A stretch of DNA of 64,000 nucleotides from a virus (IMGVR_UViG_3300032156_000002:9023-73022); one strand, 5' to 3'. Positions 18,189 to 44,222 are shown, counted from the first letter of the stretch. Numbers and translations: made by a program. Notes: a model not told the origin generated them from the sequence alone.

Positions 18189-18191
18189 GAC

Positions 18192-24146: not shown

Positions 24147-24703
24147 AAAGTCTGTGTGAGCGGTGCCGCAAGCCATACACGCGCAAGACCCGTTCGAAGT
24201 ATTGCTTGACCTGCCGCCCGATTGTCAAGAGGGAGTACGCCGTGGTCGGCAGGGGCACGGTCCGCTGTCACAAAGACGCTGTGCCTATCCCCTCGATTAT
24301 CAATGCCCACTACGTGGACCGCGATGCCTCCACGCTCGGGCGCGAGAAACTGCGCGACCTGTTGCGGCGCGTTGTGCCTACGGGCGCATATGCGGTCATG
24401 GCGACGCGCGAGGACTCGACCTACGCTATCGGCGCGACCTTCGCGCAGAACGAAATCATCGAGACCCTGATAGACGGCTTTTGGGAGCGGGGCATCATTC
24501 TCAAGGGGCCGGGCGGGATACTCCGCGTCACGGGTGAGGGCGCGCCCCAACGGTTGGAGCGGTGGTGCCTGAGATGCAACCAGTACCGGAGCATCGCGGA
24601 CTTCTACACCGTGCACGGGATGCTCACGCCCTACTGTGCTCACTGTACGCCGCGCAAGTTGCCGCGCAATGTGGCGCTCGCAGAACTGGCGGGAGGGACA
24701 TGA
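24143..24703 (+). CDS. Zn-ribbon protein, 186 aa, ending in ...LAGGT.
   Basis: CERCRKPY...CLTCRP...CLRCNQY...CAHC. The start overlaps the previous stop (ATGA). Confidence 0.5.
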   Translation: MKSLCERCRKPYTRKTRSKYCLTCRPIVKREYAVVGRGTVRCHKDAVPIPSIINAHYVDRDASTLGREKLRDLLRRVVPTGAYAVMATREDSTYAIGATFAQNEIIETLIDGFWERGIILKGPGGILRVTGEGAPQRLERWCLRCNQYRSIADFYTVHGMLTPYCAHCTPRKLPRNVALAELAGGT

Positions 24704-25266
24704 TGGACGCGAAGCCAAGTGGCGAAGTCTGTCAATCTTGTGGTCGTGCCTACGATACGGTTTATCACGTCCCCGACTCTGTGTGGGCACGACTGTTGCC
24801 CAACAAGGCACCGGCTGGCCTTCTCTGTATTCCATGTGCCATCCGCATTGCGGGAGAGAAAGGGATTGACTTGTGGTGGGATGCGGCGGAGAACGATTTT
24901 CCAACCGCCGCCCTCGAATCGCAGGTGGCGGAGGCGCTAGGCAGGGAGCAACTCGCTAACATCCGCGTCGAGGCCATGATGGATGGCATGCGCAAGACGG
25001 ACGCGCGACTCATGGATGCTCGCAGGATGCTCTCGGACGATTACAACATCATGGTCGCCATACACACCAAGCGGAGGGATGCCGAGCGCCAACTTTCGGA
25101 GATGCAGAATACGGCGAAAGAGAATGGTTGGATGAAGCGCATCCTGTTAGCCATGTCCCCGGCCTACTGGATGGGGTGGGTCGAGGGGCCTCACTATGCG
25201 ACAGGCGACTTCGACGAACTGGCATTCTTTCGCGCACTGCGGAATATCAATGCGGCAGGAGGTTGA
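24700..25266 (+). CDS. MMDAK-family small protein, 188 aa.
   Basis: Starts MMDAKPSGEVCQSCGRAY immediately after the conserved GGAGGGACATGATGGACGCGAAG junction. Confidence 0.5.
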   Translation: MMDAKPSGEVCQSCGRAYDTVYHVPDSVWARLLPNKAPAGLLCIPCAIRIAGEKGIDLWWDAAENDFPTAALESQVAEALGREQLANIRVEAMMDGMRKTDARLMDARRMLSDDYNIMVAIHTKRRDAERQLSEMQNTAKENGWMKRILLAMSPAYWMGWVEGPHYATGDFDELAFFRALRNINAAGG

Positions 25267-25267
25267 C

Positions 25268-25579
25268 GTGGGAACGAAGTGTGCCGCAGTCGTGTGGCTC
25301 GACTCTGTGATGGTAAAGCCGGGTTGGTTGCCACCCGGCGGGATTGAGGCGTTTGAGGCGAAGGCCAGCATGATACACGTCTCTGTCGGGATGCTCGTGG
25401 AGGGGGCAGACTACATCCTTCTTTTTCAATCAGCGAGCGCAGAGTGGCAGGATGGCCGGAAAGAGCATGCCAATCTCATCAAAATCCCGCGCGTGTCTGT
25501 GCTCAGGTGCTCGTACTTCGACATTGACTTCGAGAAACTAACCAGTCTGAGCACAGGACAACCAGAGGTGAAGCGATGA
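25268..25579 (+). CDS. Hypothetical protein with a GTG start and a GGAGG RBS.
   Basis: ORF 25196..25579. gcaggagg lies 5 nt upstream of the GTG. Confidence 0.4.
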   Translation: MGTKCAAVVWLDSVMVKPGWLPPGGIEAFEAKASMIHVSVGMLVEGADYILLFQSASAEWQDGRKEHANLIKIPRVSVLRCSYFDIDFEKLTSLSTGQPEVKR

Positions 25580-25689
25580 AGATGATGAAGATTTGGAAGT
25601 GGTTGCGATGGTTTGTGCGCACCTGTTGGGGAGATTACTTCAGGCCGGGCGCGTATATGGAACTTCCTTTCGAGCCGTGGGAGTAGTCC

Positions 25690-26064
25690 ATGCCTAACCT
25701 AATCCGCTACGTGAACGAATGCGAACGCATCCCGACTGGGTGGGGATTGGCATGGCGCGACTGGACGTGCCAGCGCGCGGCGGTCATGCCCATCCCTCTC
25801 AACCTGCTCGCATGGGTGGGCATTGCCGCCTACCGATGGCTGACCATGCTACCGCCGACGCGCCTCGAACGTGCCATGTCGGAGCAATACAGCGCCGGTC
25901 GCAGGCGCGGTTATCACGAGGGGCATCAGGCGGCGATGGCACTCTTGTTAGAGATGACCGAATTGCATAGGGTAGCCGACCTGATGCGCGCCGACGAGCA
26001 CGGGCCAGTGATGTCGCCGCCGGTGAAGAGGGGAGATGCGCATGCCGAACTCGACACTGCCTGA
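25690..26064 (+). CDS. Hypothetical 124 aa protein.
   Basis: ORF track. Confidence 0.45.
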   Translation: MPNLIRYVNECERIPTGWGLAWRDWTCQRAAVMPIPLNLLAWVGIAAYRWLTMLPPTRLERAMSEQYSAGRRRGYHEGHQAAMALLLEMTELHRVADLMRADEHGPVMSPPVKRGDAHAELDTA

Positions 26065-26383
26065 AGGCCAAATCCGCCTCGGCTCCGACGCCGCGAATGC
26101 CTTGGGCTTTACCAAGGACAAGTTCACCGGCTACCTGTGGCACGACGGCAACGCCATTTACATATCGCTCATCGAGTCGCTGGACCAAGGCAAGGGGCAT
26201 CTCAAGGCGCTGTTCGACCGCATCTTCGAACTGGGCTACGCCGTGAAAGTGCCGACGCCCTTGCCGCTCATGGAGGCGATTCTCAAGCACGAGGGATTTG
26301 TCCACACGATGGAGTTTGACCCGCTCGTTGGCGACAACTGCGACGTGTGGTGCAAGGCGAGCGAAGCCGCGGTGCCGATATGA
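26036..26383 (+). CDS. Possible minimal GNAT-like acetyltransferase.
   Basis: IESLDQGKGHLKALFDRIFELGYAVKV resembles GNAT motif A, Q/RxxGxG/A. Weak. Confidence 0.3.
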   Translation: MRMPNSTLPEGQIRLGSDAANALGFTKDKFTGYLWHDGNAIYISLIESLDQGKGHLKALFDRIFELGYAVKVPTPLPLMEAILKHEGFVHTMEFDPLVGDNCDVWCKASEAAVPI

Positions 26384-27018
26384 CCATCGAGTTGCATCAC
26401 GGCGAATTCCAGACCGCGGACATTCAGCCCGAGTCGGTGGATGTCATCGCCACCGACCCGCCCTACCCGAAACCCTACCGGGGCCTGTGGCCGGACCTCG
26501 CCGTGTTCGCACAGCGCGTGCTCAAGCCCGGCGGGAGCCTGCTTGCTATCACCCCGCACTACCTGTTGCCTTGGGTCATCCAACAGTGGGGCGAGGCCGG
26601 GCTGAAGTACCGCTGGATTCTCAAGATGGACCAAGAGGCCGGACCGCACCCGCGCATGGCCATGGGAGTCGAGGTCACGTGGAAGCCGATTCTCTGGTAC
26701 GTCAAGGGAAACTTCCCGCGTGGGCGCGGCTTTGTGAAAGACGGATTTGAGTCTGTGACGAAGGGCGAACTCCTCGCCGTGCGCGGCCAGCCCTTCGAGT
26801 GGATGCAATCGCTGAACTGGGCCGAACACATGATGAGGTTTGTCAAGCCCGGCGAGTTGGTCGTGGACCCCATGATGGGCGTCGGCACCCTGCCCCTCGT
26901 AGCAGGCCAGCACGGAGTTGATGTCATCGGAGTCGAGAAGGACGAGGACGTTTATCAATTCGCCGTGGACCGGCTCCTCAAGGCAAACCTGTTCGTAACA
27001 GAAAAGAGGCTGACATGA
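26380..27018 (+). CDS. DNA methyltransferase, beta-class DPPY, probably a second orphan MTase.
   Basis: VIATDPPYPKP and VVDPMMGVGTLPLVA. Start at the internal MTIELHHG of ORF 26347..27018. Confidence 0.7.
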   Translation: MTIELHHGEFQTADIQPESVDVIATDPPYPKPYRGLWPDLAVFAQRVLKPGGSLLAITPHYLLPWVIQQWGEAGLKYRWILKMDQEAGPHPRMAMGVEVTWKPILWYVKGNFPRGRGFVKDGFESVTKGELLAVRGQPFEWMQSLNWAEHMMRFVKPGELVVDPMMGVGTLPLVAGQHGVDVIGVEKDEDVYQFAVDRLLKANLFVTEKRLT

Positions 27019-27371
27019 GGTACACCTTCAAAAAGAACAAGGGCAACACCTACGAGATAGAGGTCTCGGGCATGTGGCCGGGCAAGATTCTCTGCCCAAG
27101 CATCCGCGAGAGCATCGCCAAGTGGCGAGCCATCGTGCGGTTCCTCACGGCCAACAACAGTGCGGTGCTGGTGAAGGCGGGGGGCGGTTGCGCCCTCTGC
27201 CATTCCTACCTCGACATTCTCCTGATTGACCCGTGCTATCACTGCCCGATTTTCAAGGTAACGCACATCAACAAGTGCTTGAGTACGCCCTTCCGCCAGC
27301 GCCCCGAACTCCGTCACGCTGAGGCCGAGGTGCTGTTTCTGCGCGCTATCCTGAAGTTGAACGGCGGATGA
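27015..27371 (+). CDS. Hypothetical Cys-rich 118 aa protein.
   Basis: ORF track. Confidence 0.45.
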   Translation: MRYTFKKNKGNTYEIEVSGMWPGKILCPSIRESIAKWRAIVRFLTANNSAVLVKAGGGCALCHSYLDILLIDPCYHCPIFKVTHINKCLSTPFRQRPELRHAEAEVLFLRAILKLNGG

Positions 27372-27442
27372 CGGTTGTCTATGTTGCCCCTCATTCTCGT
27401 GGGTATCATTGTCTTTTTCCTGCTACTTTTGGCGATTGACCC

Positions 27443-27733
27443 ATGAGCGACAGTTACTTCGAACTCGCGCCGCTTCCGAAATACAGCACTGTGGTGGCGA
27501 CCCTACCTGCGCCAGCGAATTGCATGACCAAGGAGACGTTGGCGGAGCGCGGGCTTTTTCTGTGCTCACGGTGTCACGGCGACCGCTGGATACAGGTGCC
27601 GCATCCCCAGCCCGAGCGCCCCGACTGGCGCGTGAGGCAGGGATGCCCGCGATGCGGTGGCCACGGGGTCATGGGCCTGATTCGCGTGACCCCGGTGCCC
27701 GTGGAAACCAAACGTAAGGAGAGTGATAGATGA
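27443..27733 (+). CDS. Hypothetical Zn-ribbon 96 aa protein.
   Basis: CSRCHG...CPRCGGHG. Confidence 0.45.
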   Translation: MSDSYFELAPLPKYSTVVATLPAPANCMTKETLAERGLFLCSRCHGDRWIQVPHPQPERPDWRVRQGCPRCGGHGVMGLIRVTPVPVETKRKESDR

Positions 27734-28533
27734 ACCACCAAGGGATTTTCAAACTACTATTCGGGGCCGCAGTTGCGGCGGCCATCGCGCTCATCCTTGT
27801 CGTGATTGGGGTGCCTGCGCCTTCGGCCTGCGCTGGCGTTGCGGCGTGTGACCCTCCGGCCACATTCACGCCCATTCCACCCCCGCCTACGGCCACATTT
27901 ACGCAACCCCCGCCTCCGCCAACGGCGACCGACACACAGCCGCCGCCTCCTCCTCCACCGACAGCCACCGACACACAGCCGCCACCTGAGTCGACTCCAA
28001 CCTTCACGCCGCCGCCGCCGCCCCCTCCACCCCCTCCACCGCGTTATCCAACGCGCACTCCTCGCCCGACGGCCACGCCTACGCGCGCGCCTGCGCCTTG
28101 CGCGTGTGCGTGTTGCGAGGCAGGCTGGGTCGAGTTCGACACTGGCCTCGAGGGCACGACTGTCAGGGCGCGCGTCGCAGACATTGCCATTGTCGAGTAC
28201 GCAGAGGATGCCAACGGCCACCCATTCGCTTTCGTGGGCATGGTCGGCGGTAAAGAGAATGTCGCCGATGGGCCGCAAGCCGTGGTGTTGGTCCAGAACG
28301 CAATCAACTCAGTGCCCGCTTGCCCGGCCGTTGACCTGACCATAATCTCCTACACGGCCATTGGCCCGGTGGCGCGCAGGGCCGAGGTGGCGGTCCGCCA
28401 TATCGTATCGGTCGCCTTCGCGACCGGGGAGGACGGCGCACAGAAGGCAACCATTTACTTCGGGAATCTTGCGCCCACAATCGTAACTGACCCGGCGAGC
28501 ATCGCACTGCTCAGGGCTATCACGGCCCCGTAG
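27730..28533 (+). CDS. Membrane-anchored protein with a long Pro/Thr-rich linker and a Cys cluster.
   Basis: N-terminal TM, then PPPTATxTQPPPPP repeats and PPPPPPPPPPPRYPTRTPRPTATPTRAPAPCACACCEAG. Confidence 0.55.
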   Translation: MNHQGIFKLLFGAAVAAAIALILVVIGVPAPSACAGVAACDPPATFTPIPPPPTATFTQPPPPPTATDTQPPPPPPPTATDTQPPPESTPTFTPPPPPPPPPPPRYPTRTPRPTATPTRAPAPCACACCEAGWVEFDTGLEGTTVRARVADIAIVEYAEDANGHPFAFVGMVGGKENVADGPQAVVLVQNAINSVPACPAVDLTIISYTAIGPVARRAEVAVRHIVSVAFATGEDGAQKATIYFGNLAPTIVTDPASIALLRAITAP

Positions 28534-28689
28534 GGCTTTGTGTCGCGACACTTGTCTTGACACTTGTCGCGACATTGGCGTGTTTTGAGTGGACGCAAGA
28601 ATCTCGATTCGGCCTTTTTCAAGCGCATCGTGGCCGCGGGAGTGCATTTCGCCTTGACACGCCAAACGAATGACTGCTATTCTGCGGCC

Positions 28690-29733
28690 ATGATGCGTCC
28701 AATCAGACGGCACGAAACGCTCGCGGTCTGCTTGCTTGCGCTACTGTTGCTCGCGCTCGCGCTCGCGCAATCTGCCGTTGTGCCGGTCGAGACCACAGCG
28801 CCCGCGGCGCAGGTGCGGCCGACGCCCGCGGCTACCGAACTGCCCGCCCCGGCATTGTCAATCGCCCCGGCCATTGCGCCGCCGGTCGCGCCTTCGACAT
28901 GGCGGCCGCGCGCGCAAGTCCCCGCCCTGCCCGGCTCGGCCGATGACCCCTTCCTTCTGACCAACTTCGACATGCGTTTCGAACTCGGCGAGGATGATTC
29001 GAGTGTCTACAACGGTTACTACTGGGTGCTCGAAAAGGGGTCATGGATACCGGGCATGATTTCCAATCGCAGTTGGTTCCTTGCCAGCCCACAGCACACT
29101 ATCGGCGCGGCGACCTACTACGCCAATGGCGTCATGGAGGCAACGGCGCGGTCGCGCGGCATGAGTCTCAGCGGCTTTGTGGGCGGCGTATCTCTTATCA
29201 GTCCGGCCGACATCGGCCAGACTGTGTATCTGCGCAGACAGACCGAAGACTGGGAAGGTCCATTCCTCGTCGTGGACTGTGCGCGGCGTTCGGATATGTG
29301 GGGCGTTGTCTACTACCGCGGCGAAGTGGTCGAGGTAGATTTTCATACTGCCATTCGCTGGGGCATGGTCAATCCGACAACCTACAAGCGCATCTCCTAT
29401 CGCATGGACGGCGTGGAGGTGTGGAAGGGCAGACACCCGCCCGAGGACGGCGGCCAGCCACTAGACCTGCGCCAATACTGGATACCGCGAGTCGAGTGGG
29501 TATGGGGCTACGAAGCGCCGCCTCTCTACATGGGCGACGGCCAGTGGCGGCAACCCTATCGCCATGTTGTGGACGGCCTATGGGTCAATACCCCCTTCAT
29601 CGTGACGGACCCGGACACGGTGACGCCTCACCCTGTCGTACCCGGCCCGCTTACGCCCGGCGAGGTGTGTCTGCCCACAGACCGGGCGTGCGGCGAAGCG
29701 CGGGAGACTCTGATTCGCTGGGGGGTTTATTAG
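28690..29733 (+). CDS. Secreted protein, possibly a cell-wall hydrolase with a 3D/DPBB-like C-terminal segment.
   Basis: Signal peptide LAVCLLALLLLALALAQSA at the internal Met of ORF 28564..29733. VVDCARRSDMWG...GEVVEVDFHTA weakly resembles 3D-domain acidic motifs. Confidence 0.45.
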   Translation: MMRPIRRHETLAVCLLALLLLALALAQSAVVPVETTAPAAQVRPTPAATELPAPALSIAPAIAPPVAPSTWRPRAQVPALPGSADDPFLLTNFDMRFELGEDDSSVYNGYYWVLEKGSWIPGMISNRSWFLASPQHTIGAATYYANGVMEATARSRGMSLSGFVGGVSLISPADIGQTVYLRRQTEDWEGPFLVVDCARRSDMWGVVYYRGEVVEVDFHTAIRWGMVNPTTYKRISYRMDGVEVWKGRHPPEDGGQPLDLRQYWIPRVEWVWGYEAPPLYMGDGQWRQPYRHVVDGLWVNTPFIVTDPDTVTPHPVVPGPLTPGEVCLPTDRACGEARETLIRWGVY

Positions 29734-29750
29734 GCCACCCGTGGTATAAT
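29717..29750 (+). promoter_or_regulatory. Promoter-like element with an extended -10, a partial family member.
   Basis: ggtttattaggccacccgTGGTATAATtg. Weak -35. Confidence 0.3.
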
Positions 29751-29793
29751 TGCGATACGCGCGGCTCCAAGGTCGCGCGGGGAGGATGTAGCG

Positions 29794-30069
29794 ATGTTTT
29801 GGTCTAGACTCTGGCAAGTCCTCAATTCGTTCCTCATCGGCATTCTCATTCTCTTTTACTTCCTCATGGCTCTCTACTTGACCAGCCTGCTCGTGGTCCT
29901 GACGCCCACGTTGCGAGGCTGGGGTGCCGCGCTGAGTGCCATTGGCGCGTTCATCATGGCGATATGCGTTGCCGTCGTCTTTGTGGGCGTTGGCCATCTT
30001 TTCGCCATGGGCTGGAAAACCTCCGGCTGGAAGGCATCCTCGCCGCCGACACAGGAGAACGCGAAATGA
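29794..30069 (+). CDS. Small membrane protein with 2-3 TM, holin-like topology.
   Basis: LIGILILFYFLMALYLTSLLVVL and AIGAFIMAICVAVVFVGVGHLF. Confidence 0.45.
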   Translation: MFWSRLWQVLNSFLIGILILFYFLMALYLTSLLVVLTPTLRGWGAALSAIGAFIMAICVAVVFVGVGHLFAMGWKTSGWKASSPPTQENAK

Positions 30070-30302
30070 AGATTGTCCTCGATTGCATTGGTGGCTTTTT
30101 CATGGGGCTGTTCGTCCTCACGGGAGTGGCGGGGTGCTGGGGCGTTGCGTGGGTGTTCTTCCATGGCATGCTCGTATTGACCGGATGGGGCGCGCTATGT
30201 TTGGGCCTCGGCGGACTTATCGTTGCCGCTCTCGGGGCGGTGCAAGTCGCGTTTATCGGTTCTTCCTACTTTGAGCCGCTTCGCCTAAGTCAGAGGAGAT
30301 GA
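30066..30302 (+). CDS. Small membrane protein of 78 aa, 2-3 TM.
   Basis: Internal Met of ORF 29964..30302. GGFFMGLFVLTGVAGCWGVAWVFF... Confidence 0.45.
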   Translation: MKIVLDCIGGFFMGLFVLTGVAGCWGVAWVFFHGMLVLTGWGALCLGLGGLIVAALGAVQVAFIGSSYFEPLRLSQRR

Positions 30303-30306
30303 CCCA

Positions 30307-30590
30307 GTGATTGAGACCACCGATACTCGCATCCCCGTGAAGCGTTGGGTGACAGGCCTCGACGAGGGAACAGAGCGCCAGATACGCGACATTGCCAATC
30401 TGTCGGTCTCGCGCGCGGTCGCTATCATGCCCGACGCGCACGTTGGGTACGGCATGCCCATCGGCGGCGTGCTGGCGACCTCGACGAAGCGCCGGGCGCG
30501 TACAAGCCGATAGATGAGGTCATGGAGAATCAGCGCGACCTCGTATCCGCGATGGTCAAACTGACGCCCATCGCGAACATAAAGGGATAA
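30307..30590 (+). pseudogene. rtcB: RtcB RNA-ligase remnant. The N-terminal roughly 60 aa and the C-terminal roughly 30 aa are joined out of frame, with about 1 kb of internal sequence deleted.
   Basis: ORF 30307..30513 ends ...VAIMPDAHVGYGMPIGGVLATS, the RtcB metal-site motif. The -1 frame ORF 30345..30590 ends ...LDEAPGAYKPIDEVMENQRDLVSAMVKLTPIANIKG, the RtcB C-terminal signature. Confidence 0.6.
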
Positions 30591-30685
30591 TCACATGCGC
30601 ACTCCACAATGCAGAACGTGTCGGCACGCGAAATCAAAACACAACGTCGCCGCAGGTTGTCTGCACAGCGTCGGCGGGATGTATT

Positions 30686-31126
30686 GTGACTGTCTTGCCT
30701 TTGTTGCCCCGCGCAAGAAGCAAAAGACTCGGCGCGCATGAAAGGACTCCCCAACTCCTAATGGCCACCTACTACGACCTCGTTCGCCGCATCATGCGCA
30801 AGCCCGACATGCCAGAGGAACTGGCGGAGTTCATCCTATGGAATGGGACATGCTACCCGTTCGGTAGCGCGCTTCAGGTCGCGCGGCAACTGCGTGACAC
30901 GCGCGAAGCGCACGCACGCGGGATGAGTGTGTGTTGCATGTGCGGCGCAGAGTACCGCGACCCGGACGGCAGGATTGTCCTCGGAGGCGAGTGCGGCGCT
31001 GGCGGCAACTGTGCGGAGTTGGTGAGGATTGCCAAGGACCAGCGCGTGCGCGACAACGTGAAGCATCCGGCCCGCTGGGCGTGGGTCGCGAAGGTCCTCG
31101 GCAATCTCAAGGCGAGGGTCTTGTGA
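30686..31126 (+). CDS. Hypothetical Cys-rich protein, possibly starting at MATYYDL.
   Basis: ORF track. CCMCG...CGAGGNC. Confidence 0.4.
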   Translation: MTVLPLLPRARSKRLGAHERTPQLLMATYYDLVRRIMRKPDMPEELAEFILWNGTCYPFGSALQVARQLRDTREAHARGMSVCCMCGAEYRDPDGRIVLGGECGAGGNCAELVRIAKDQRVRDNVKHPARWAWVAKVLGNLKARVL

Positions 31127-33035: not shown

Positions 33036-33041
33036 CATCCA

Positions 33042-36270: not shown

Positions 36271-36279
36271 GGAGGACGT

Positions 36280-36638: not shown

Positions 36639-36728
36639 AACTGCGTGTGTCCTCTAGGTGTAGGCGCAAGGGGTCACGGCTTCTAATCCTTTCACGTGGC
36701 CCCTTGCACCGCCTAGCGCGGAGGCTTC

Positions 36729-37151: not shown

Positions 37152-37165
37152 AGGAACCATAATAG

Positions 37166-37396
37166 ATGCTGTCAGGAAACAAGCCGAGCGCGGCTCCCGA
37201 GGTGAGGGGACAGGGCCTCAACCGAAAATACAATCTCTACCGGTACGGCTGGGGCAACAACGAGGTGTGCAAGGCGTGGATGGGTGCGGTCGTGCGGGTG
37301 CTTGCCGTTGGCCGGAAGCAGACGGCGCTCATTGAGCGAATCGGCGACGGCGCGCGCATGACTACGAGCCTGCGCGCGCTCAGGAGAATCAAGTGA
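37166..37396 (+). CDS. Hypothetical 76 aa protein.
   Basis: ORF track. Confidence 0.4.
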   Translation: MLSGNKPSAAPEVRGQGLNRKYNLYRYGWGNNEVCKAWMGAVVRVLAVGRKQTALIERIGDGARMTTSLRALRRIK

Positions 37397-37578
37397 GAGC
37401 CTTCTACCCCGGCGGCCCCAACAGACTGCCCGACCCCGAGTCGGGCGAGCATCTCGACTACGGGGTGATGCTCGGATGCGTGGATGTGCTGGCCCTGATT
37501 ATCATTGGCCTCGTGGCGACCGTCACGCTCTATGGCCTGTGGTACACGATTCGCGAAATTGGACAATTGATTCACTAG
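37393..37578 (+). CDS. Small membrane protein, 61 aa.
   Basis: VLALIIIGLVATVTLYGLWY. Confidence 0.4.
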   Translation: MRAFYPGGPNRLPDPESGEHLDYGVMLGCVDVLALIIIGLVATVTLYGLWYTIREIGQLIH

Positions 37579-37586
37579 GAGGCAAC

Positions 37587-37823
37587 ATGGCAGACGAGTT
37601 TAGTTGGGAAGGCAAGGAAGCGCAGTTCCCCAAGACCATCTATGCGGGCATTCCCGACTCGGACGAGGACGGTGCGTATGTCCCGGCATTCTCGAAGATG
37701 GTTGAGGTCGAGGACATAAAGCCGGGCACGGAATGCCTTGTAGGGGTCTACCAGTTGGCTGAAATCCGGCACATCACCGTGGACGTGAATATCCGCGCGG
37801 CGATGCAAGTCGAGCCGGAGTAG
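37587..37823 (+). CDS. Hypothetical acidic 78 aa protein.
   Basis: Internal Met of ORF 37476..37823. Confidence 0.4.
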   Translation: MADEFSWEGKEAQFPKTIYAGIPDSDEDGAYVPAFSKMVEVEDIKPGTECLVGVYQLAEIRHITVDVNIRAAMQVEPE

Positions 37824-37851
37824 CGCAAACATTTTCAATAGGAGATAGCAC

Positions 37852-38385
37852 ATGAAGCGAATAGCACTGATTGCCGCATTGCTCGTACTGATGGTTGGCT
37901 GTCTGCCTTCGCCAGTGCTCGTGGCCACGCCGAATGTCGTGGTCATCACGTCGCCGCCCATCGAGGTGACGCGGGAGGTACAAGTCACGCGCGTGGTCCC
38001 GGCGACCCCGCTCCCGGCGACCGTCGCGCCGACCGTCCTTCCGACCTACATGGCGACCGAGCCGGTCGTGCAATTCACCGACATCACATGGACGCGCGAC
38101 GCGAAGGTTCCTCGTATCTGCATCAATCAGGGCGTCGCCTTCAAAATGGTTCTCGAAGGCAAGCCGGGGCTGGATGTGGTTTATCACATCAACCACTATG
38201 ACGGCGCGGGCGTCAAGACCTATCGTAGCAAGGACTTCGCAGGCACCATCGAAGCCGACGGCAAGTTGGTCAAGTCCTTCCAAGAGTCGTTCACGTATCA
38301 GAGCAAGTGGCGCGTGCAACTGGTCATCACGTGGCCGCTTCCGCTGGTCACGCGGAACGCAAGCATCACTGTGGACTGCAACTAG
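37852..38385 (+). CDS. Lipoprotein.
   Basis: MKRIALIAALLVLMVGC gives a signal peptide with an L-M-V-G-C lipobox. Confidence 0.6.
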   Translation: MKRIALIAALLVLMVGCLPSPVLVATPNVVVITSPPIEVTREVQVTRVVPATPLPATVAPTVLPTYMATEPVVQFTDITWTRDAKVPRICINQGVAFKMVLEGKPGLDVVYHINHYDGAGVKTYRSKDFAGTIEADGKLVKSFQESFTYQSKWRVQLVITWPLPLVTRNASITVDCN

Positions 38386-38692
38386 GAAGCGCCTCACGGC
38401 GCAATGCAACTGACTTTGGCTCCGGGTCTCGTCAAACAGGCCCGGAGCACATGGGGCCGAGGGCGCGCTTCGGCGCAAGGGACTACTGTCCCTCACGGTA
38501 GGCACTCGACCCCAGTATGACCGGGCTGGGCGCAAACGGCGACGGCTCTCGTAGCATGTTACGAGGTAAAGACGCCGGACGGTCGCTCCGATAAGCGCCC
38601 GGCCCGAGGGGCTAGGTAGGAGTCGCCTAACGAGCGACTCCGGTGGTCGCCTTGCGACCTAAGCCGCGCGAGCGGGGGAGCCTAGCCCCTAC

Positions 38693-38776
38693 GGAGAGAT
38701 AGCCAAGCGGCGAAGGCACCCGTCTGATACGCGGGTGGGCGTAAGCCCCTCGGGCGTTCGAATCGTCCTCTCTCCA
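38693..38776 (+). tRNA. Class-II tRNA-like gene with a long variable arm, a Ser-type acceptor and D arm, and a predicted anticodon GAU.
   Basis: Cloverleaf reads GGAGAGA-TA-GCC-AAGCGGCGAA-GGC-A-CCCGT-CTGATAC-GCGGG-[TGGGCGTAAGCCCCTC]-GGGCG-TTCGAAT-CGTCC-TCTCTCC-A. T-loop TTCGAAT, G18G19, U33, 7/7 acceptor pairs, 84 nt. Confidence 0.5.
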
Positions 38777-38918
38777 CTAGCGGGGCGGCAAATCCAAAGG
38801 CTGGCGTGGGTGATGATTGTCGGGGTGAGGGGAACACTCAATCCCGGCACAAGCGGCGGTGGCCGCCGTCTCGGGGTGAGGCCACAAGAACGCCAACCTT
38901 GCCGCCCCGCTTTCTGAT

Positions 38919-38947
38919 TTGACAAACTATTCCGCACGTGGTATGAT
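38919..38947 (+). promoter_or_regulatory. Conserved promoter, family copy, firing rightward.
   Basis: tTTGACAaactattccgcacgTGGTATGATagg. Confidence 0.5.
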
Positions 38948-38983
38948 AGGGATGCTCACAGACTAGCGAGCGGAGGTGATGCG

Positions 38984-39547
38984 ATGAACGAGGTCCTTGA
39001 GAACACAATCACCCCGTGCGATTCGGCAAGCCGAGTTATTGCCAATTTCTATGTGCAACTCGGGCGCGATGACTGGGAGAATGCGCGCCGCATTGGCATC
39101 GAGCGCAGGGACCGCGACCGGGAGGAGGGTATCGTGGAACTCGCCACTCACCCGGAGATTTGTCTCGACCCCGACGAAACAGCCACCAACTACGGCGCGG
39201 AGATGGCGGCGGCGATGTGGCTCAAGGTGCCATTCGACGAGAACACCGACCCGCGCAAAGCCCTGAAGTTCGACCTGCTGTTTCGTGGCCTGAAGATTGA
39301 CGTGAAGCGTCCGCACGTTCGGGCCAAGGCGCTGTCCATTCCGCCACACACGCGCGACGGCTGGTGCGACATCTACTTGGTTGTCCAGTGCGTCGGCCGC
39401 CGCTACAAGGTAACGGGGTGGATGCGGGCGGCGGAGGCGCGGACAGAGAAATACTGGAACGATGGTTGCGCGAAGCCGTGCTGGCAGGTTCCGTTCGGGG
39501 ACCTGCGCGACCCGATTGACCTGCTCCTCGCGGAGGGACTGCCATGA
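38984..39547 (+). CDS. Hypothetical protein, 187 aa, with a possible PD-(D/E)XK-like motif.
   Basis: FDLLFRGLKIDVKRP fits D...(D/E)xK. Weak. Confidence 0.45.
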   Translation: MNEVLENTITPCDSASRVIANFYVQLGRDDWENARRIGIERRDRDREEGIVELATHPEICLDPDETATNYGAEMAAAMWLKVPFDENTDPRKALKFDLLFRGLKIDVKRPHVRAKALSIPPHTRDGWCDIYLVVQCVGRRYKVTGWMRAAEARTEKYWNDGCAKPCWQVPFGDLRDPIDLLLAEGLP

Positions 39548-39834
39548 AGCAACCCGACGGCGGCATGCGCATCACAGCGGTTTCCGTGCTCGCGCTTATG
39601 GCCATCGGCCTAACCTCCGTGCTCGCCGCGCTCAACTTTGCGGGGATTATCAATGTGTCGTGGTGGGTCGTTACCGCGCCGGTGTGGATTATCCCCGTCA
39701 TCACCGTCGCGCTCGTCCTCGTTTCCCTCACACTCCTCGGCCCCGACATTATCAAAACCTACCGTTCCGAGAGCGCCTACAGGCGGTCAATTCGTCAGAA
39801 GATTGCCGAATTCCTGCGTCGTCCCAAGCCTTGA
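39544..39834 (+). CDS. Membrane protein, 96 aa, 2 TM.
   Basis: Hydrophobic helices. Confidence 0.45.
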   Translation: MKQPDGGMRITAVSVLALMAIGLTSVLAALNFAGIINVSWWVVTAPVWIIPVITVALVLVSLTLLGPDIIKTYRSESAYRRSIRQKIAEFLRRPKP

Positions 39835-39858
39835 CAACTATTCCGCCTGTGGTATAAT
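39831..39858 (+). promoter_or_regulatory. Conserved promoter, family copy, firing rightward.
   Basis: cTTGACAactattccgcctgTGGTATAATaagg. Confidence 0.5.
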
Positions 39859-39893
39859 AAGGTCAGTCTAAAGCCTACCGACGGGAGGGCGGA

Positions 39894-40295
39894 ATGACTA
39901 CCAAAAAGGAACGTCAAGAAGCGATGTTCAAGGATTTGTTTGAGAAGGCGCACGAGGCCGGGACGGCCGCGGCGTTTCTCACTCAGCCGGTGCCGATGGT
40001 TGTCGAGGAGCACCGGAGTATGCTCGATGACGCCTCGCCGGTTGTCAAGCAATGGTATGTTCCGGGCGGCGTGTGCGGCTTTGCGTGGGTGAGTATCAAG
40101 CCCGCCAATGGTCCGGCGGCTCACTACGCGGTCAAGAACTGCGGCGCTCGCCCCGACTCGTACTACGGCGGCGTGAGCATTTGGGTCAGCGACTTCGGCC
40201 AGTCCATGCAAATCAAAGAGGCTTACGCGCAGGCTTACGCGCGCGTGCTGGCTGATGGCGGAGTCAAAGCCTACCCCATGTCGAGGATAGACTGA
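39894..40295 (+). CDS. Hypothetical protein, 133 aa.
   Basis: ORF track. RBS gggagggcgg. Confidence 0.5.
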   Translation: MTTKKERQEAMFKDLFEKAHEAGTAAAFLTQPVPMVVEEHRSMLDDASPVVKQWYVPGGVCGFAWVSIKPANGPAAHYAVKNCGARPDSYYGGVSIWVSDFGQSMQIKEAYAQAYARVLADGGVKAYPMSRID

Positions 40296-40325
40296 CGGCC
40301 CGCGCTTCGTGATAAGGGGCAAACC

Positions 40326-40535
40326 ATGACTGTACCGATGATTGTCGCCCTGTGCGTTCTTGCGGGCATTGCCTGCCTGATGCTGGCGAACGCCAACTTT
40401 CCGCATCGGTGCGAGGGCATGGTCACGCGCACCACGGCGACCGGTCTGAGCCAGAAGCAGTGCGCGCGCATTGCCGTGAACGGGCGCATCTACTGCGAGG
40501 CACACCTGCGCGCCATGAACGACGGAGCAAAGTGA
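40326..40535 (+). CDS. Small membrane or Cys-containing protein, 69 aa.
   Basis: ORF track. Confidence 0.4.
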   Translation: MTVPMIVALCVLAGIACLMLANANFPHRCEGMVTRTTATGLSQKQCARIAVNGRIYCEAHLRAMNDGAK

Positions 40536-40816
40536 TGAGTTTCGCTAAGGGCAGTCAGGATTGGGGAGGGCGGCGAAAGGAAAACCCGGAGGGCGCGCCG
40601 CGCGTGACGAGACAGGACGTACTCGACCGCGCGCGCGAGTTGGGCCTTCAGGTCAAGCGCGACGGCCTATACGGTATGTCCGGCAGATGGTTGTACCTCG
40701 ATGGCAAGGCGTGGCGGGGTCTCGGCAACACAAACTTTCGCGCCGTCGAGAGGATGCGCGCTATGATTGGTGGCCCGGATTGGATTCTGCCGGATGGAGG
40801 GGCCGATGCTAACTAG
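40535..40816 (+). CDS. Hypothetical 93 aa protein.
   Basis: Internal Met of ORF 40352..40816. Confidence 0.4.
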   Translation: MSFAKGSQDWGGRRKENPEGAPRVTRQDVLDRARELGLQVKRDGLYGMSGRWLYLDGKAWRGLGNTNFRAVERMRAMIGGPDWILPDGGADAN

Positions 40817-41144
40817 ACGCGAGAGCGAGGAACTCGACCGGCACATCACCGGCAACTATGGCGAGGACCAGTTCCGCGACTGGAACCGATTTGACGGCCT
40901 CGACCCGGACGGTCCGATTCCCGAAGAGGACTACATCCCACGCCACAAACAGAAGGGCCGCGGCAAGCGCGTGAGCAAGTGTTATCACAAAGGTAGCGGT
41001 GCGCGCAAGGGCGGGGAGCCTAAGCGGTCCAACCCGTTCCCCGAGGATACCTACGAGTTCTACGAGTGGCGCGCCGGATGGCTGGGTATGGACAAGTGGG
41101 CGCGCGAGAATCCCCAAGAGCAATGGCCGGAGCCACGACAATGA
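40806..41144 (+). CDS. Hypothetical 112 aa protein.
   Basis: Internal Met of ORF 40767..41144. Confidence 0.4.
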   Translation: MLTRRESEELDRHITGNYGEDQFRDWNRFDGLDPDGPIPEEDYIPRHKQKGRGKRVSKCYHKGSGARKGGEPKRSNPFPEDTYEFYEWRAGWLGMDKWARENPQEQWPEPRQ

Positions 41145-41362
41145 TGCAGGTCGGGTGGTGGGGCGTTCCCGGCTCACACCGGGATGGCACGCAGGTCCAC
41201 ATCTCCGCGAGCGCGCACAAGGCGCTCTGCGGCGACACGTTCGTGCCGCACTCCGAGTTCCAGTGGTGCGCACACGACGTGGCCTTCGGTCTGTACCTTG
41301 TCGAGTGCGAGCGGTGCGTCAAGAAATACGTGTACGTCTCTCAGTTGGAGGTGAAGCAATGA
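41141..41362 (+). CDS. Hypothetical 73 aa protein.
   Basis: Internal Met of ORF 41066..41362. Confidence 0.4.
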   Translation: MMQVGWWGVPGSHRDGTQVHISASAHKALCGDTFVPHSEFQWCAHDVAFGLYLVECERCVKKYVYVSQLEVKQ

Positions 41363-41601
41363 GCGAACACACACGAGACTATCGCTCGGTTACTCTTGGC
41401 ATGACGGAGGGCGATGGCATGGGGGTCCAGCGCATCAGGGCCGTCGCGGCGATAAACCTCATTGACGGCATGCCGTTCGATTGGGGAGTCTATATCGGCA
41501 CCGGGAGCGACGAGCACATTGCGGCCTACGGCATGAAGCAACCGCCGAATGTCGGGGCGGCCCTGTTCCTCGACCTGCCCGCGGCCCTCTACCGAAAGTA
41601 A
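41359..41601 (+). CDS. Hypothetical 80 aa protein.
   Basis: In frame with ORF 40999..41601. ATGA overlap with the upstream stop. Confidence 0.4.
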   Translation: MSEHTRDYRSVTLGMTEGDGMGVQRIRAVAAINLIDGMPFDWGVYIGTGSDEHIAAYGMKQPPNVGAALFLDLPAALYRK

Positions 41602-41624
41602 GAGGGGAGAACAAAACGAATCCC

Positions 41625-41900
41625 ATGCGCCGTTGGATTCCGAACTCGGAGTTTGAGGATTACAAGTGGCATCGTCGCGCCGAACGCATCGCGGCCCGCA
41701 ACCAGCCGCCTGCGCCAAAGGCCGCGCCGCCGCCGCCGGACCCGCCACCGACACTGCGCCAATGGTGGTGCCTCAGGTGCAACAACGCGGTGTTCGGGGG
41801 CAAGGCGATGCGCCAAGTAGTGCGCACCAAGGACGGCCGCGATGTGCATTGCTACTGCGGTGGAGACTGCGAGTTGAGGATTGTGGAGGGGCGAGGATGA
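41625..41900 (+). CDS. Hypothetical 91 aa protein with Cys pairs.
   Basis: RBS agaggggaga. CLRCNN...CYCGGDC. Confidence 0.4.
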   Translation: MRRWIPNSEFEDYKWHRRAERIAARNQPPAPKAAPPPPDPPPTLRQWWCLRCNNAVFGGKAMRQVVRTKDGRDVHCYCGGDCELRIVEGRG

Positions 41901-42283
41901 CCAACCAACCGAAGCCGCCGGGCGAAACACCGCTTGAATTGAAAAGATACATCGCATTGAGGGCGCACACCGTCGCGCGTTGGGGGCGGAGTATGCCACA
42001 TGGCGCAAAGCGGCGGGAGGATGAGATGAGCGAGAAGCCGGATGCCCCCATGAGCGACAAGGAGCGCGCCGACCGCCTTGAGGGGATGTTAGATAGATGC
42101 CTAGATACTATCGTTGACCTCAAGGCGGAGAACGCGGCGCTGAGGGATGAGCGCATTGTGCTTGAGAAGGCCTTGCGATTTGCCACATGTAGATGTGAGG
42201 GTGCGCCATACTCCGATACATCCATGCACGATGACGAATGCCCATACACCGCAATTCTACGCAAAGCCGCAGGAGGGACATGA
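41897..42283 (+). CDS. Coiled-coil small protein of the MSEKPDAPMS paralog family, ending in AAGGT. The true start may be the internal MSEK at about 42026.
   Basis: Shares MSEKPDAPMS[DE]xERADRLE.M.D...VDLKAENAAL with the gene at 42716. Confidence 0.45.
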   Translation: MTNQPKPPGETPLELKRYIALRAHTVARWGRSMPHGAKRREDEMSEKPDAPMSDKERADRLEGMLDRCLDTIVDLKAENAALRDERIVLEKALRFATCRCEGAPYSDTSMHDDECPYTAILRKAAGGT

Positions 42284-42714
42284 TGGACGCGAAGGAAACA
42301 CTGGAACTTTGGCGCGATGCCAGAGAGCACTTTGAGACTGGCGACCTCCAGCACAAAGAAGGCGAGTGCATTGCCGCATTGCGAACTCTGTGGGATGCGC
42401 TTTCGGAAACCCTCGCGGCCAAGTTCGCCCTCGAAGCGCAGGTGGCGGAGACGGAGAAAGAATTGGCCGAGGGTGACTATTGGATGATGCGGGCCAAGGA
42501 CTTCGCCGCAAACGGAGGGTGTCCATCCTGCTTTGCCTCCGACGAGGCTGGGCACAAGGACGGATGCGAAGTCGCCGCCCTCGAAGCGCAGGTGGCGGCC
42601 ATGCGGAAGGCGGGGGGCAAGTTGGCCGACAGACTCATCGGCCTTCACAAACCGTTGGTAGGCAGGCCAATAGACCGCGAACTTGCGGATTGGCGCAAGG
42701 CGGCGGGAGGGTGA
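42280..42714 (+). CDS. MMDAK-family small protein, 144 aa.
   Basis: Starts MMDAKETLELW after the conserved junction. Contains two EAQVA coiled-coil repeats. Confidence 0.45.
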   Translation: MMDAKETLELWRDAREHFETGDLQHKEGECIAALRTLWDALSETLAAKFALEAQVAETEKELAEGDYWMMRAKDFAANGGCPSCFASDEAGHKDGCEVAALEAQVAAMRKAGGKLADRLIGLHKPLVGRPIDRELADWRKAAGG

Positions 42715-42715
42715 G

Positions 42716-43456
42716 ATGAGCGAGAAGCCGGATGCCCCCATGAGTGAAGAGGAACGGGCCGACCGCCTCGAAAGAATGGTAGACACACTGGCGGGCACCG
42801 TCGTTGACCTCAAGGCGGAGAACGCGGCGCTGGTGGCAGAGTGCGACATGGCCTTGGCCGTGACAGTAGAACGGGATGGCCTCAGCGGTAGGTTGACGAA
42901 TGCCCTCGCCCGCATTCAGGCATTGGAGCCTTTGATAACCGAGAACGCGGCGCTGAGGGAGGCGGCGGCAAATCTCGTGGCCGGTGCCATCTTCAATCAG
43001 ACCGGCGTAGTGATAACCAACGCGGCGCTGTATGCACTACGCGCCGCCCTGCGCCCCCGGACGCACGGCGCGATGGCGAGTGAATGTCAAGAGTGGCGCG
43101 AGATGCTTGAGAAAGCCGCGAGGAGGGACATGATGGACGCGAAGGATAAGCACAGTTGCGCCGAGCCACGTTACTTCATGGACACAGCCGTTGTTGAAAC
43201 GGATGACGGGCCTCCTCAACCAAGGCAGGCCGCATTCCTGATGTGTACCCAAGAGGGCTGTGCTTTTCATCTCGGCGATTATGGGGAAATTGTCGCATAC
43301 ATTCGTGGCCTCGAAACCGCCAAGTCCTCCCTCGAATCGCGGGTGGCGGAGTTGGAGACACTTCTGCGCGACGCCGACAATTGGGTGAATTGGCCTCGAG
43401 GAATTGCCAAGCGGGTGCGCGCCGCCCTCCGCTCCGCCGATAAGGGAGGGACATGA
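42716..43456 (+). CDS. MSEKPDAPMS-family coiled-coil protein, apparently fused in frame to an MMDAK-family module at about 43132.
   Basis: The junction at about 43115-43145 reads gcgaggagggacATGATGGAC. One extra nt relative to the other copies removes the stop. Confidence 0.4.
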   Translation: MSEKPDAPMSEEERADRLERMVDTLAGTVVDLKAENAALVAECDMALAVTVERDGLSGRLTNALARIQALEPLITENAALREAAANLVAGAIFNQTGVVITNAALYALRAALRPRTHGAMASECQEWREMLEKAARRDMMDAKDKHSCAEPRYFMDTAVVETDDGPPQPRQAAFLMCTQEGCAFHLGDYGEIVAYIRGLETAKSSLESRVAELETLLRDADNWVNWPRGIAKRVRAALRSADKGGT

Positions 43457-43785
43457 TGGACGCGAAGCCGCAAACTGCACTCGTGATGTGGCAGGACAGC
43501 GTTGACCTGAGCCGCAGGTGTGCCAACTACAACCCGAGTCGCCAAGCACTCATTGACGTTGCAGACTATGCCCTCGCCCTCGAATCGCAGGTAGCGGAGT
43601 TGGAGAGGATAACGGAGGTAGCACTCAAGATTGTCGCCCAAACTTTGAACGAGGCACGCTTTACGCATGTGCGCTGGCAAGCATGTGAGCGCATCAATGA
43701 GAAGTTGGGGAGAGCACACATCCCGCTTTGTCTGTTCGACCACGGCGGGATTGCCGACGCTGGGCATTGCATGGCGGGAGGGTGA
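43453..43785 (+). CDS. MMDAK-family small protein, 110 aa.
   Basis: MMDAKPQTALVMWQ after the conserved junction. Confidence 0.45.
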   Translation: MMDAKPQTALVMWQDSVDLSRRCANYNPSRQALIDVADYALALESQVAELERITEVALKIVAQTLNEARFTHVRWQACERINEKLGRAHIPLCLFDHGGIADAGHCMAGG

Positions 43786-43787
43786 CG

Positions 43788-44222
43788 ATGCCCCGACTGA
43801 ATGAAGGTCGGGCCGTTGCTTTGCACTGTGGCTATTGCGGCGACCCCGTGTGGGAAAACAACGGGCACCTGTGCAAGAAATGTAGGAAGTACGAGGAGGA
43901 ACTCAGGAGCGCCGAAAGGATACGCGAGCGGAACCTGAAGTTCTCGGAGCGCGCCCTTCACTTTCTCCTTGTGAGGGACGCAATGGCTGACTGCCCTCTG
44001 TCGCCGGGTTTGCCGATGAGCGTTGTTGAATTGCATACGATGCTCAAGGATGGGGTCCTTTCGCCGGGGTCGTTGATATGCGAGGGGGACAGTCCCAAAA
44101 AGGTCTTTAGGGTCCGTGCGAATCCGCTTCCGCACAAGGTACTGCCACACGAGGTATCGGACCGCATGAGACGCAAGGCGGAGGTGTTTCGCTGGCTTGC
44201 CCCCGTGAAGGCGACTCGTTAG
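43788..44222 (+). CDS. Zn-ribbon protein, 144 aa.
   Basis: CGYCGDPVWENNGHLCKKCRKYEEE. Confidence 0.45.
   Translation: MPRLNEGRAVALHCGYCGDPVWENNGHLCKKCRKYEEELRSAERIRERNLKFSERALHFLLVRDAMADCPLSPGLPMSVVELHTMLKDGVLSPGSLICEGDSPKKVFRVRANPLPHKVLPHEVSDRMRRKAEVFRWLAPVKATR

Follow-up and report, generated by a model that had tools for sequence, protein, structure and literature searches.

What keeps a stretch of 23 nucleotides identical at the junctions between small phage genes when both of its flanks are at background? This question is raised by 64,000 nucleotides of viral DNA (IMGVR_UViG_3300032156_000002:9023-73022), referred to as the window throughout, in which short cassettes recur where one small gene ends and the next one starts. 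They lie at two loci, locus A at 24.7 kb and a main array at 41897-43785. We propose that these cassettes and two further motifs inside the same genes are in-phase adaptors, that is, recombination joints between the interchangeable pieces of a mosaic family of small genes, and we consider this the likely explanation. Whether phage mosaicism reflects random exchange followed by selection or short linkers at module boundaries has been debated since the late 1970s. Clear examples of linkers are few, the promoter early stem-loops (PeSLs) of T4-type phages being the best documented, and the present locus would be a compact and unusually clean case, in which the linkers are translation-initiation cassettes together with in-frame intragenic motifs.

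The window is phage DNA with a GC content of ~62% and forms a portion of a phage genome of roughly 96 kb. Its 96 genes were called with a home-made procedure based on codon bias, and coordinates are window positions unless a contig is named.

Start cassettes and in-frame joints

The first cassette, E1, is the 23-mer GGAGGGACATGATGGACGCGAAG, which occurs exactly four times in the window, always on the + strand (Table 1), and not once in 100 shuffles; a mismatch-tolerant, relaxed search of the window found no copies beyond these four. Each copy consists of GGAGG followed by ACATGATG, so placed that the TGA of the upstream gene overlaps a first ATG and abuts a second one, with the GGAGG 3 nt before ATG 1 and 6 nt before ATG 2. 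The genes 5' of E1 end in LAGGT, AAGGT or DKGGT directly before the stop, and those 3' of it begin with MMDAK. The original prediction, made from the sequence alone, had described just such an exact repeat, combining a Shine-Dalgarno (SD) site, an AGGT-stop end and an MMDAK start, and both the copy number and the reading of the junctions confirm it. The 3-4 nt directly 5' of the core, which it had written as GC(A/C), differ among copies.

How far does this conservation reach? When 11 independent junctions, drawn from at least four lineages, are aligned, 23 columns are 90-100% identical and both flanks are at background. Conservation extends through ATGATGGACGCGAAG, that is, 15 nt into the open reading frame (ORF). 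The spacer GAC (3 nt) is unchanged in 11 of 12 junctions, and the codons for D, A and K, which offer three synonymous sites, are identical in 8 independent copies, where codon usage predicts ~0.25 per copy. These are the features specific to E1: the exact spacer, the double ATG and the DAK codons. GGAGG-type SD sites are found at most of the 96 called genes and an ATGA stop/start overlap at 21 same-strand junctions, so both are general features of the window and not peculiar to the cassettes. Translational coupling is therefore not peculiar to a regulon marked by the cassettes, as had been suggested.

The second cassette, E2, was predicted in two copies and is present in two, where none is expected by chance. 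It starts the genes S1 and S2. Within the window, E2 lies at the core of a more extensive repeat, which is 87% identical over 93 nt and 89% identical over another 44 nt, and the first 39 residues of the S1 and S2 proteins are 77% identical; to judge from their sequences, the two genes are clearly tandem paralogues. The start proper to S1 lies at 42026, and its protein ends in RKAAGGT before the stop. An ORF with a different head, MTNQPKP (E5), enters S1 in frame from 41897; the segment 41897-42026 could mark another frameshift fusion or, alternatively, S1 could truly start at 42026, and codon statistics are not decisive. A WRKAAGG-stop tail is encoded out of frame at 42001-42024 (stop at 42022-42024), 5' of E2 copy 1.

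The original prediction attributed the fusion at the third E1 copy to a single extra nucleotide that removes a stop, and comparison of the tails confirms this: the sequence 5' of E1 copy 3 reads AAAGCCGCGAGGAGGG, the paralogous tail 5' of 42272 reads AAAGCCGCAGGAGGG, and the two differ by one extra nucleotide, which leaves a stop-free ...EKAARRDMMDAK... and the continuous ORF 42716-43456. The read-through of S2 (EKAARRDMMDAK) is also found in P0002 of a sister strain, in independent assemblies, where it is fused to another gene (gene X, below); a mistake in a single assembly can therefore not account for the fusion. From the fused ORF, both the fusion protein and free gene C product are probably made, the latter through the internal SD and AUG.

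Are the genes that share these starts otherwise unrelated, their proteins diverging completely after residue 5, as had been stated? They are not: they form a mosaic family with further joints inside the genes, sharing a 21-nt motif, an AGG(T)-stop tail and partial, domain-wise similarities. The motif, E3, is the in-frame sequence CTCGAA(T/G)CGC(A/G)GGT(G/A)GCGG.., which encodes LE(S/A)(Q/R)VA(E/A) and is present in all MMDAK genes of the window (n=5 copies). Its reading frame is the same in 11 of 11 copies. All 11 unique copies use the minor codon GAA for Glu (29% of Glu codons), and 10 of the 11 use CTC, whereas amino-acid replacements by single-base changes (S/A, Q/R, E/A) are tolerated. Fixed synonymous sites alongside tolerated replacements are the reverse of what selection on the peptide alone would leave; conservation of E1 and E3 acts on the DNA, not on the peptide alone. 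One stretch within E3, GCAGGTGG, is one base off the E. coli Chi sequence, at a position that varies among copies. A second in-frame motif, E4, encodes ENAALRD and occurs three times in S1 and S2; a related 28-nt stretch is 100% identical between two contigs of other phages, L001 and L013, in different proteins.

Table 1. Cassettes, joints, genes and promoter of the two loci (window positions)
Feature	Position	Strand	Description
E1 copy 1	24692..24714	+	exact 23-mer; joins gene 24143-24703 (..LAGGT-stop) to gene A
E1 copy 2	42272..42294	+	exact 23-mer; S1/gene B junction
E1 copy 3	43122..43144	+	exact 23-mer; within fusion ORF; SD and AUG for gene C (43130-43456) kept
E1 copy 4	43445..43467	+	exact 23-mer; gene C/gene D junction
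E2 copy 1	42012..42054	+	tail ..AAGG, SD, MSEKPDAPMS start; extended repeat 42001-42093
E2 copy 2	42702..42744	+	gene B/S2 junction; extended repeat 42691-42783
E3, gene A	24913..24933	+	joint LESQVAE; motif search
E3, gene B (two)	42430-42450, 42580-42600	+	motif search
E3, gene C	43331..43351	+	joint LESRVAE; motif search
E3, gene D	43579-43599	+	motif search
E4 (three copies)	S1 42128..42147; S2 42818-42837, 42941-42960	+	in-frame ENAALRD; motif search
Gene A	24700..25266	+	188 aa; MMDAK head, Zn-ribbon-like CxxC..CxxC N-domain, LESQVAE joint, helical C-part, ..AAGG-stop tail
MTNQPKP-headed ORF	41897..42283	+	head E5, in frame into MSEKP gene S1; translation
Gene B	42280..42714	+	144 aa; MMDAK head, two E3 joints, ..WRKAAGG-stop tail; two-module composite
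Fusion ORF	42716..43456	+	246 aa; S2 (MSEKP) read through into gene C (MMDAK); +1 nt within GCCGCGAGGAGGG (~43116-43128)
Gene C	43130-43456	+	own SD/AUG in E1 copy 3
Gene D	43453..43785	+	110 aa; MMDAK head, E3 joint, ..CMAGG-stop tail
Sigma-70 promoter	39831..39858	+	TTGACA-16-TATAAT, TG-extended; 12/12 consensus match

The mosaic character is plain from an all-against-all BLASTP, which gives a domain-by-domain network of partial similarities and no whole-gene tree. The proteins carry Cys/His pairs and predicted long helices, and the tail of gene D with the SD site after it, GGCGGGAGGGTGA, resembles the left part of E2. As we picture it, the two loci (24.7 kb; 41.9-43.8 kb) would hold one mosaic family of small, probably early, Zn-ribbon/coiled-coil ORFan genes, each put together from five types of piece: a head and an N-domain, followed by LESQVAE or ENAALR as in-frame joint, a C-part and a KAAGG(T)-stop tail. 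The heads would be MMDAK, MSEKP and MTNQPKP, with MSDKLSET in other phages, and E1 and E2 would each comprise the last codons of the upstream gene, the SD site, the overlapping or abutting stop and start, and the first 5-10 codons of the next gene. In a profile search with gene C and P0003, a protein that shares its N-domain (below), this N-domain was found only in this phage group; the many matches of the profile are due to the C-part of P0003, which the window lacks. P0003 is encoded at L003 2349-2816, and its C-part (..NPYPEGGNLYCGWSFGFW..) belongs to a small widespread domain, of which a search of 1.84 billion proteins gave 15 more representatives at E <= 1e-10.

Rearrangement ends coincide with the elements

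If the elements are joints, rearrangements between close relatives should end in them. Relatives came from a few, probably related metagenome projects (Ga03152xx, SRR96179xx, SRR9651192 and ERZ272477xx-ERZ272481xx), many as short contigs; in 50,697 GenBank phage records, blastn found nothing that matches the array, and a scan for the 23-mer in one genome per bacterial or archaeal species was likewise negative. Four IMG/VR loci retrieved with a relaxed E1 pattern (L005-L008) were dropped as unrelated and probably chance matches, their proteins being different; L007 alone shares an unrelated 128-nt stretch with the window, far from the array.

Two sister strains, L002 (Logan, SRR9617949) and L010 (ENA, 42-kb contig), are 99.2-100% identical to the window in the flanks of the array and differ from it inside the array by exactly three indels. 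The first is a 690-nt segment, comprising the body of S1 and gene B, which is absent in both strains; the crossover lies within the 33-nt perfect core of E2, L002 following copy 1 to GGAGGATGAG and copy 2 from ATGAGTGAAG. The second is an additional MMDAK gene of 351 nt, gene X, at E1 copy 3, bounded by the 17-nt direct repeat ATGATGGACGCGAAGGA within E1. The third is a 63-nt insertion in gene C, bounded by AATCGCGGGTGGCG, which is 14 nt of E3. At locus A, another strain (L015, 99% identical) carries a 424-nt insert bounded by E1, lying between two copies of GGAGGGACATGATGGACGC and holding two small genes that start MMDAY.. and MMHSH... Every mapped rearrangement end coincides with an element and lies in a perfect identity of 14-33 nt. 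All six independent breakpoints mapped in the array fall on elements, which make up ~16% of its 1.9 kb; random placement would give this with a probability of 0.16^6, ~2e-5. Over the ~27 kb compared, the sole other structural difference between strains is a free-standing GIY-YIG homing endonuclease gene: at L010 2189-2818, ~630 nt encoding a GIY-YIG/NUMOD-type enzyme replace 61 nt of the window (38381-38443).

Could these variants be chimeric contigs, created by assembler jumps between the repeats? Contigs of SRR9617952 do end at 42051 and start at 42803, both within repeats, another contig (L019) begins exactly at E1, and many of the variant contigs are short. The arrangements, however, recur independently: that of L002 in Logan is found again in L010 from ENA, P0006 occurs in ENA, JGI and Logan, and P0010 in three assemblies. 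Moreover, the repeats of 14-33 nt are far below the final k of 141 suggested by the ENA names (k141_) and probably below read length, and gene X, the 63-nt insert and the two genes of L015 are unique DNA rather than re-joined window sequence. We find an assembly artefact barely credible.

What, then, is seen in more distant phages? The array of L001/L014 (a 62-kb IMG/VR contig) lies between DNA polymerase I and an ORF of 174 residues, which may be uracil-DNA-glycosylase-like. Only 0.8% of 14 kb is common with the window DNA there, and all of it is elements. In L013, L016, L017 and L018, the 152 nt of 42571-42722, which run from E3 to E2 and form the C-half of gene B, are 100% identical to the window and stand behind another N-half; L012, L013 and L016 come with a terminase of a different type from that of the window phage. 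Conversely, 42271-42445, the N-half of gene B from E1 to E3, is 100% identical in L019 and then continues into a different C-part, which recurs in L027 behind yet another N-half, joined at the same E3 motif. L024, L025 and L026 belong to a phage of ~38-42% GC with an island of 53-56% GC (L024 2420-3100), adjacent to a primase-like gene; the island begins at E2, and in it are found a gene with the gene A domain, E1 as an exact 26-nt match and a hybrid junction in which E1-left is joined to E2-right. Such a high-GC island in a phage of low GC indicates that cassette-bounded genes moved between phages of very different composition.

Heads are exchanged as well. The domain of gene C is headed by MMDAK in the window, by MTNQPKP in L003/L004 and by MPDQPKP in L001; its N-domain is 91% identical in P0003, which starts MTNQPKP. 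The Zn-ribbon domain of gene A carries MMDAK or, in P0008-P0010, MSEKPLSD or MSDKLSET and, past a ..TAALE.. joint, continues into three different C-parts, and the C-domain of gene A is found alone in P0011. Even E1 can be taken apart: L002 has GAGGTGACGCC and then ATGATGGACGCGAAG, the two halves standing separately, and the hybrid junction of L024 has its left half only.

The original prediction had likened the cassettes to module-boundary sequences that promote gene shuffling, and this part is upheld: strain indels end inside cassettes, distant lineages share only cassettes or 100%-identical half-genes, and heads are swapped. Its term illegitimate recombination does not fit, as crossovers within 14-33 nt of identity are homology-guided. 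Identity running well into the coding flanks, which it had named as a sign of mere local duplication, is found for the window copies of E2 over the 93 nt and 44 nt described above; it is found neither at E1, where the flanks are at background, nor at E2 in L001, L024 and L027.

The last point touches on a simpler account, in which tandem duplication and fast divergence produced the family, purifying selection retained the peptide and the SD/overlap geometry, and recombination was incidental. The S1/S2 pair with its DNA identity into the genes is what this account predicts, SD sites of the GGAGG type and ATGA overlaps occur throughout the genome, and D, A and K are most often encoded by GAC, GCG and AAG. 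It sits badly with synonymous sites that are invariant despite amino-acid replacements, with a minor codon in 11 of 11 E3 copies and with a spacer constant in 11 of 12 junctions. Nor does it explain one head on unrelated bodies and one body with different heads, 100%-identical half-genes in unrelated genomes, or elements in a phage of ~40% GC. Passive paralogy is therefore improbable as the whole explanation.

Proposed exchange by annealing and the alternatives

By what machinery would the pieces be exchanged? No recombinase was found among the ~30 window proteins scanned with PHROGs. The contig L020, which is 99.9% identical to window 1-3534, extends the sequence to the left and encodes an Erf-like single-stranded DNA annealing protein at 4012-4659 (phrog_1097, E 7e-30; Pfam Rad52_Rad22, 29.4 bits at a cut-off of 20.3) and, beside it, a single-stranded DNA-binding protein (SSB) at 5095-5517. 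Both genes lie 0.5-2 kb left of window position 1 and adjoin the gene for a 491-residue Myb-domain protein that reaches into the window (174-1127). Rad52-like phage recombinases including Erf recombine diverged DNA via short identical stretches and thereby create lambdoid mosaics (PMC3945230).

In the mechanism that we propose, the catalyst would most likely be the phage's own Erf/Rad52-type annealing protein, acting with SSB at identities of 14-33 nt. A crossover in E1 or E2 would exchange whole genes and leave two intact, translationally coupled genes, whereas one in E3 or E4, whose frame is constant, would create in-frame domain hybrids within a helical segment. Exchange between tandem paralogues and between co-infecting phages would delete, duplicate, insert and swap modules, and through repeated exchange the seams would stay identical from lineage to lineage. 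In addition, E1 and E2 presumably have a part in translation. Arrangements such as AUGA and UGAUG fit termination-reinitiation.

Translation is at the heart of another explanation, in which E1, and perhaps E2, is an mRNA site through which a phage or host factor co-regulates initiation, comparable to the RegA operators of T4, with recombination being secondary. E1 covers the SD site, the spacer, two AUGs and the first codons, its conservation goes far beyond the needs of 16S pairing, and every copy lies at a gene start in one orientation; the same argument has been made for the start-associated sequences of mycobacteriophages, for which a comparable role was proposed (PMC3203893). Set against this, E3 and E4 are equally conserved at the DNA level and equally used as joints, inside genes and far from starts, and the halves of E1 occur separately in L002 and L024. 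A shared RNA structure was not found for E1 (z-scores -1.2 to +1.3), Rfam yielded no family apart from tRNA, and no candidate regulator emerged. That E1 is above all an operator is unlikely, but the two functions are compatible and may coexist.

Could the elements instead be the sites of a dedicated system, cut or joined by an integron-like recombinase or a homing-type nuclease? The layout resembles an array of small promoterless genes parted by a conserved site, and the phage carries homing elements of the GIY-YIG and LAGLIDADG kinds. In L012, L013 and L016 the array is directly followed by a small ORF with an E2 start, which we read as a candidate PD-(D/E)XK-like nuclease; it has a weak PHROG endonuclease match (E 0.003) and no Pfam match. 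Inverted repeats, however, are missing at the junctions: within 41500-44300 the only one is a 14-nt pair 201 nt apart and unrelated to them, and nothing resembles attC. No integrase was detected among the ~55 window proteins scanned, a subset of the genes in the ~96-kb genome, and the crossovers lie in four different sequences and at varying positions within them, which speaks for homology and not for a fixed cleavage site. A site-specific or nuclease-targeted system is very unlikely on these grounds. Integron cassettes and the mini-cassettes of antigenic variation (pilE/pilS, vls) are likewise variable units parted by short conserved sequences that guide exchange, and the present array shares with them its variable units and its combinatorial diversity. 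Besides lacking attC, and an integrase among the proteins scanned, it differs from antigenic-variation systems in having no layout of silent donors and an expression site, as all copies appear to be expressed genes of an operon.

Functionally, the closest known system is that of the PeSLs, short conserved regulatory cassettes among small non-essential ORFans of T4-type phages (Arbiol et al. 2010, PMC2839356; Comeau et al. 2014, PMC4122927). They occupy the spaces between ORFans of hyperplastic regions, and the indels that distinguish phi1 and RB49 are explained by PeSL-to-PeSL recombination (PMC2839356). As in the window, where segments of 690 nt (E2), 351 nt (E1), 63 nt (E3) and 424 nt (E1) are so delimited, indels and replacements between close phages are bounded by cassettes, which themselves end in the SD site and start codon of the next gene; a gene that is moved by recombination thereby keeps its expression signals, and no gene is left broken. 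We nevertheless do not class the window elements as PeSLs, because both the strong early promoter and the stable stem-loop are absent. At the cassette junctions there is no terminator, and of all the cassettes a single copy has anything resembling a promoter, a weak site (9/12) at 43107-43134. The window elements are also shorter (23-43 nt as opposed to ~100 nt) and, unlike PeSLs, include coding DNA of both neighbours, namely tail codons, the stop/start overlap and the first 5-10 codons; the in-frame intragenic joints are a further addition, by which domains are shuffled as well as genes.

The likeness to start-associated sequences (SAS and extended SAS) of cluster K mycobacteriophages, which the original prediction had raised, holds up less well. 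Here, too, an asymmetric repeat with an SD core lies 3-7 bp before the ATG in one orientation. The genes that it precedes are non-structural and belong to different families, and its conservation exceeds the needs of 16S pairing (Pope et al. 2011, PMC3203893). The window elements are not SAS, however: the 13-bp SAS consensus GGGATAGGAGCCC is absent from the window, the one match with 2 mismatches (14663) being inside a gene, with 1.5 expected by chance. Whereas SAS conservation would be confined to the region before the start codon, the conserved part of E1 includes 15 nt of the ORF, and the proteins accordingly share an N-terminal peptide; SAS elements number 11-19 as opposed to four copies of E1; the 17-bp inverted repeats associated with SAS have no counterpart at the window cassettes; and the role proposed for SAS is in translation initiation, while a role as recombination joint is documented here.

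Three further comparisons help to place the elements. T-even phages reportedly have polymorphic internal-protein loci (as described by Repoila and colleagues in 1994), whose genes share a capsid-targeting leader; a variable locus, unrelated small proteins and a short conserved N-terminal leader are common to both, whereas the leader here has 5-8 residues, is conserved at synonymous sites and can be replaced by alternative leaders on one domain, and no sign of virion targeting or proteolytic processing was obtained. For lambdoid phages, an older idea of linker or boundary sequences is said to go back to Susskind and Botstein and to have been taken up by Clark and colleagues in 2001. Finally, the mosaics attributed to relaxed, Rad52-like recombination also have exchange blocks flanked by short identities above background (Martinsohn et al. 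2008, PMC2327257; De Paepe et al. 2014, PMC3945230), and an annealing protein of the Erf/Rad52 family is encoded by the phage studied here. The difference is that the present identities are discrete, reused and phase-preserving elements common to many genes and lineages, and not leftover gene homology. To the relaxed-recombination model, the locus would thus add discrete, reused, in-phase seams, some of them inside genes.

Several points weigh against reading the elements as maintained joints. Homologous recombination is visible only where homology exists, so that the coincidence of breakpoints with elements indicates that they are used, not that they are maintained for this use. A function at the RNA level, for example as the operator of a translational regulator, could account for the perfect conservation of E1, recombination then being its by-product. 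A length of 23 nt is at the low end of the homology lengths that annealing proteins use efficiently in recombineering. The independent events may be fewer than counted, given the related projects and short contigs, and gene B as a whole is supported by only one long contig. As to function, none of the array proteins has a significant match in Pfam or PHROGs, and the AlphaFold2 model of gene A alone (predicted local distance difference test, pLDDT, of 56) was too poor for a fold search.

One may go further and ask whether the elements form an adaptor code, maintained in phase and consisting of several heads, two in-frame coiled-coil joints and one tail, with which a guild of otherwise unrelated phages (~40-62% GC) would shuffle early small-protein genes and their domains. 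The resulting combinatorial diversification would then be selected for evolvability and would not be a by-product of translation; the family would plausibly act in host takeover or anti-defence, and the logic would be comparable to that of antigenic-variation cassettes, applied to phage accessory proteins. We regard this extension as doubtful. For the joints themselves, the value of the locus is that samples of the population show modules gained, lost and duplicated, and heads and domains swapped, precisely at the seams, and that the linker hypothesis becomes directly testable. It also carries a warning for annotation: ORFans that share a start cassette may be mis-clustered or mis-called, as is illustrated here by the fusion ORFs, by the alternative starts and by the breakage of contigs at the seams.

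Genomic setting and other features

The main array lies in a run of small genes directly upstream of the packaging genes, and a T4-type large terminase is encoded at 46583-48172; the very large proteins 3' of the terminase are probably structural. The consensus promoter of Table 1 probably drives, to judge from the arrangement of the genes, a small-gene operon at 39894-44222 that contains the array. Downstream of it, only two weak terminator-like matches are found on the + strand, and no convincing terminator precedes 44222. The operon would end with a conserved gene at 43788-44222, directly after gene D, for which IMG/VR holds no relative. A second near-perfect sigma-70 promoter, TTGACA-17-TATGAT at 38919-38947, is on the same strand and likewise TG-extended, and both promoters are embedded in a 27-nt repeat, AACTATTCCGCnnGTGGTATrATAnGG. 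They probably mark the starts of early operons and point to a host that probably has a canonical sigma-70; a tRNA-Ile(GAT) gene lies just 5' of them at 38693-38777. The genes just 5' of the two cassette loci (24143-24703 and 41625-41900, both +) encode a W(W)CLRCN zinc-ribbon-like motif near their C-termini and have no significant family match.

Elsewhere in the window, a gene at 12219-15035 (+) encodes a GDP-mannose 4,6-dehydratase/NAD-epimerase whose catalytic domain is split in two by a LAGLIDADG_3 domain, to all appearances an intein or homing element. Downstream of this gene, at 15829-19007, are four paralogues in tandem, the N-termini of which resemble one another (..KVSVV(M/I)..RYR). 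A protein of 1939 residues (51886-57705, +) has an N-terminal 2'-5' RNA ligase/LigT-like domain, and the protein of 638 residues after it (57690-59606, +) a Zeta-toxin/AAA_33 kinase domain; both genes look to be part of the virion gene block. A GIY-YIG gene at 2667-3344 (-) has an internal repeat of ~160 nt at 83% identity and is related to the GIY-YIG gene inserted in L010.

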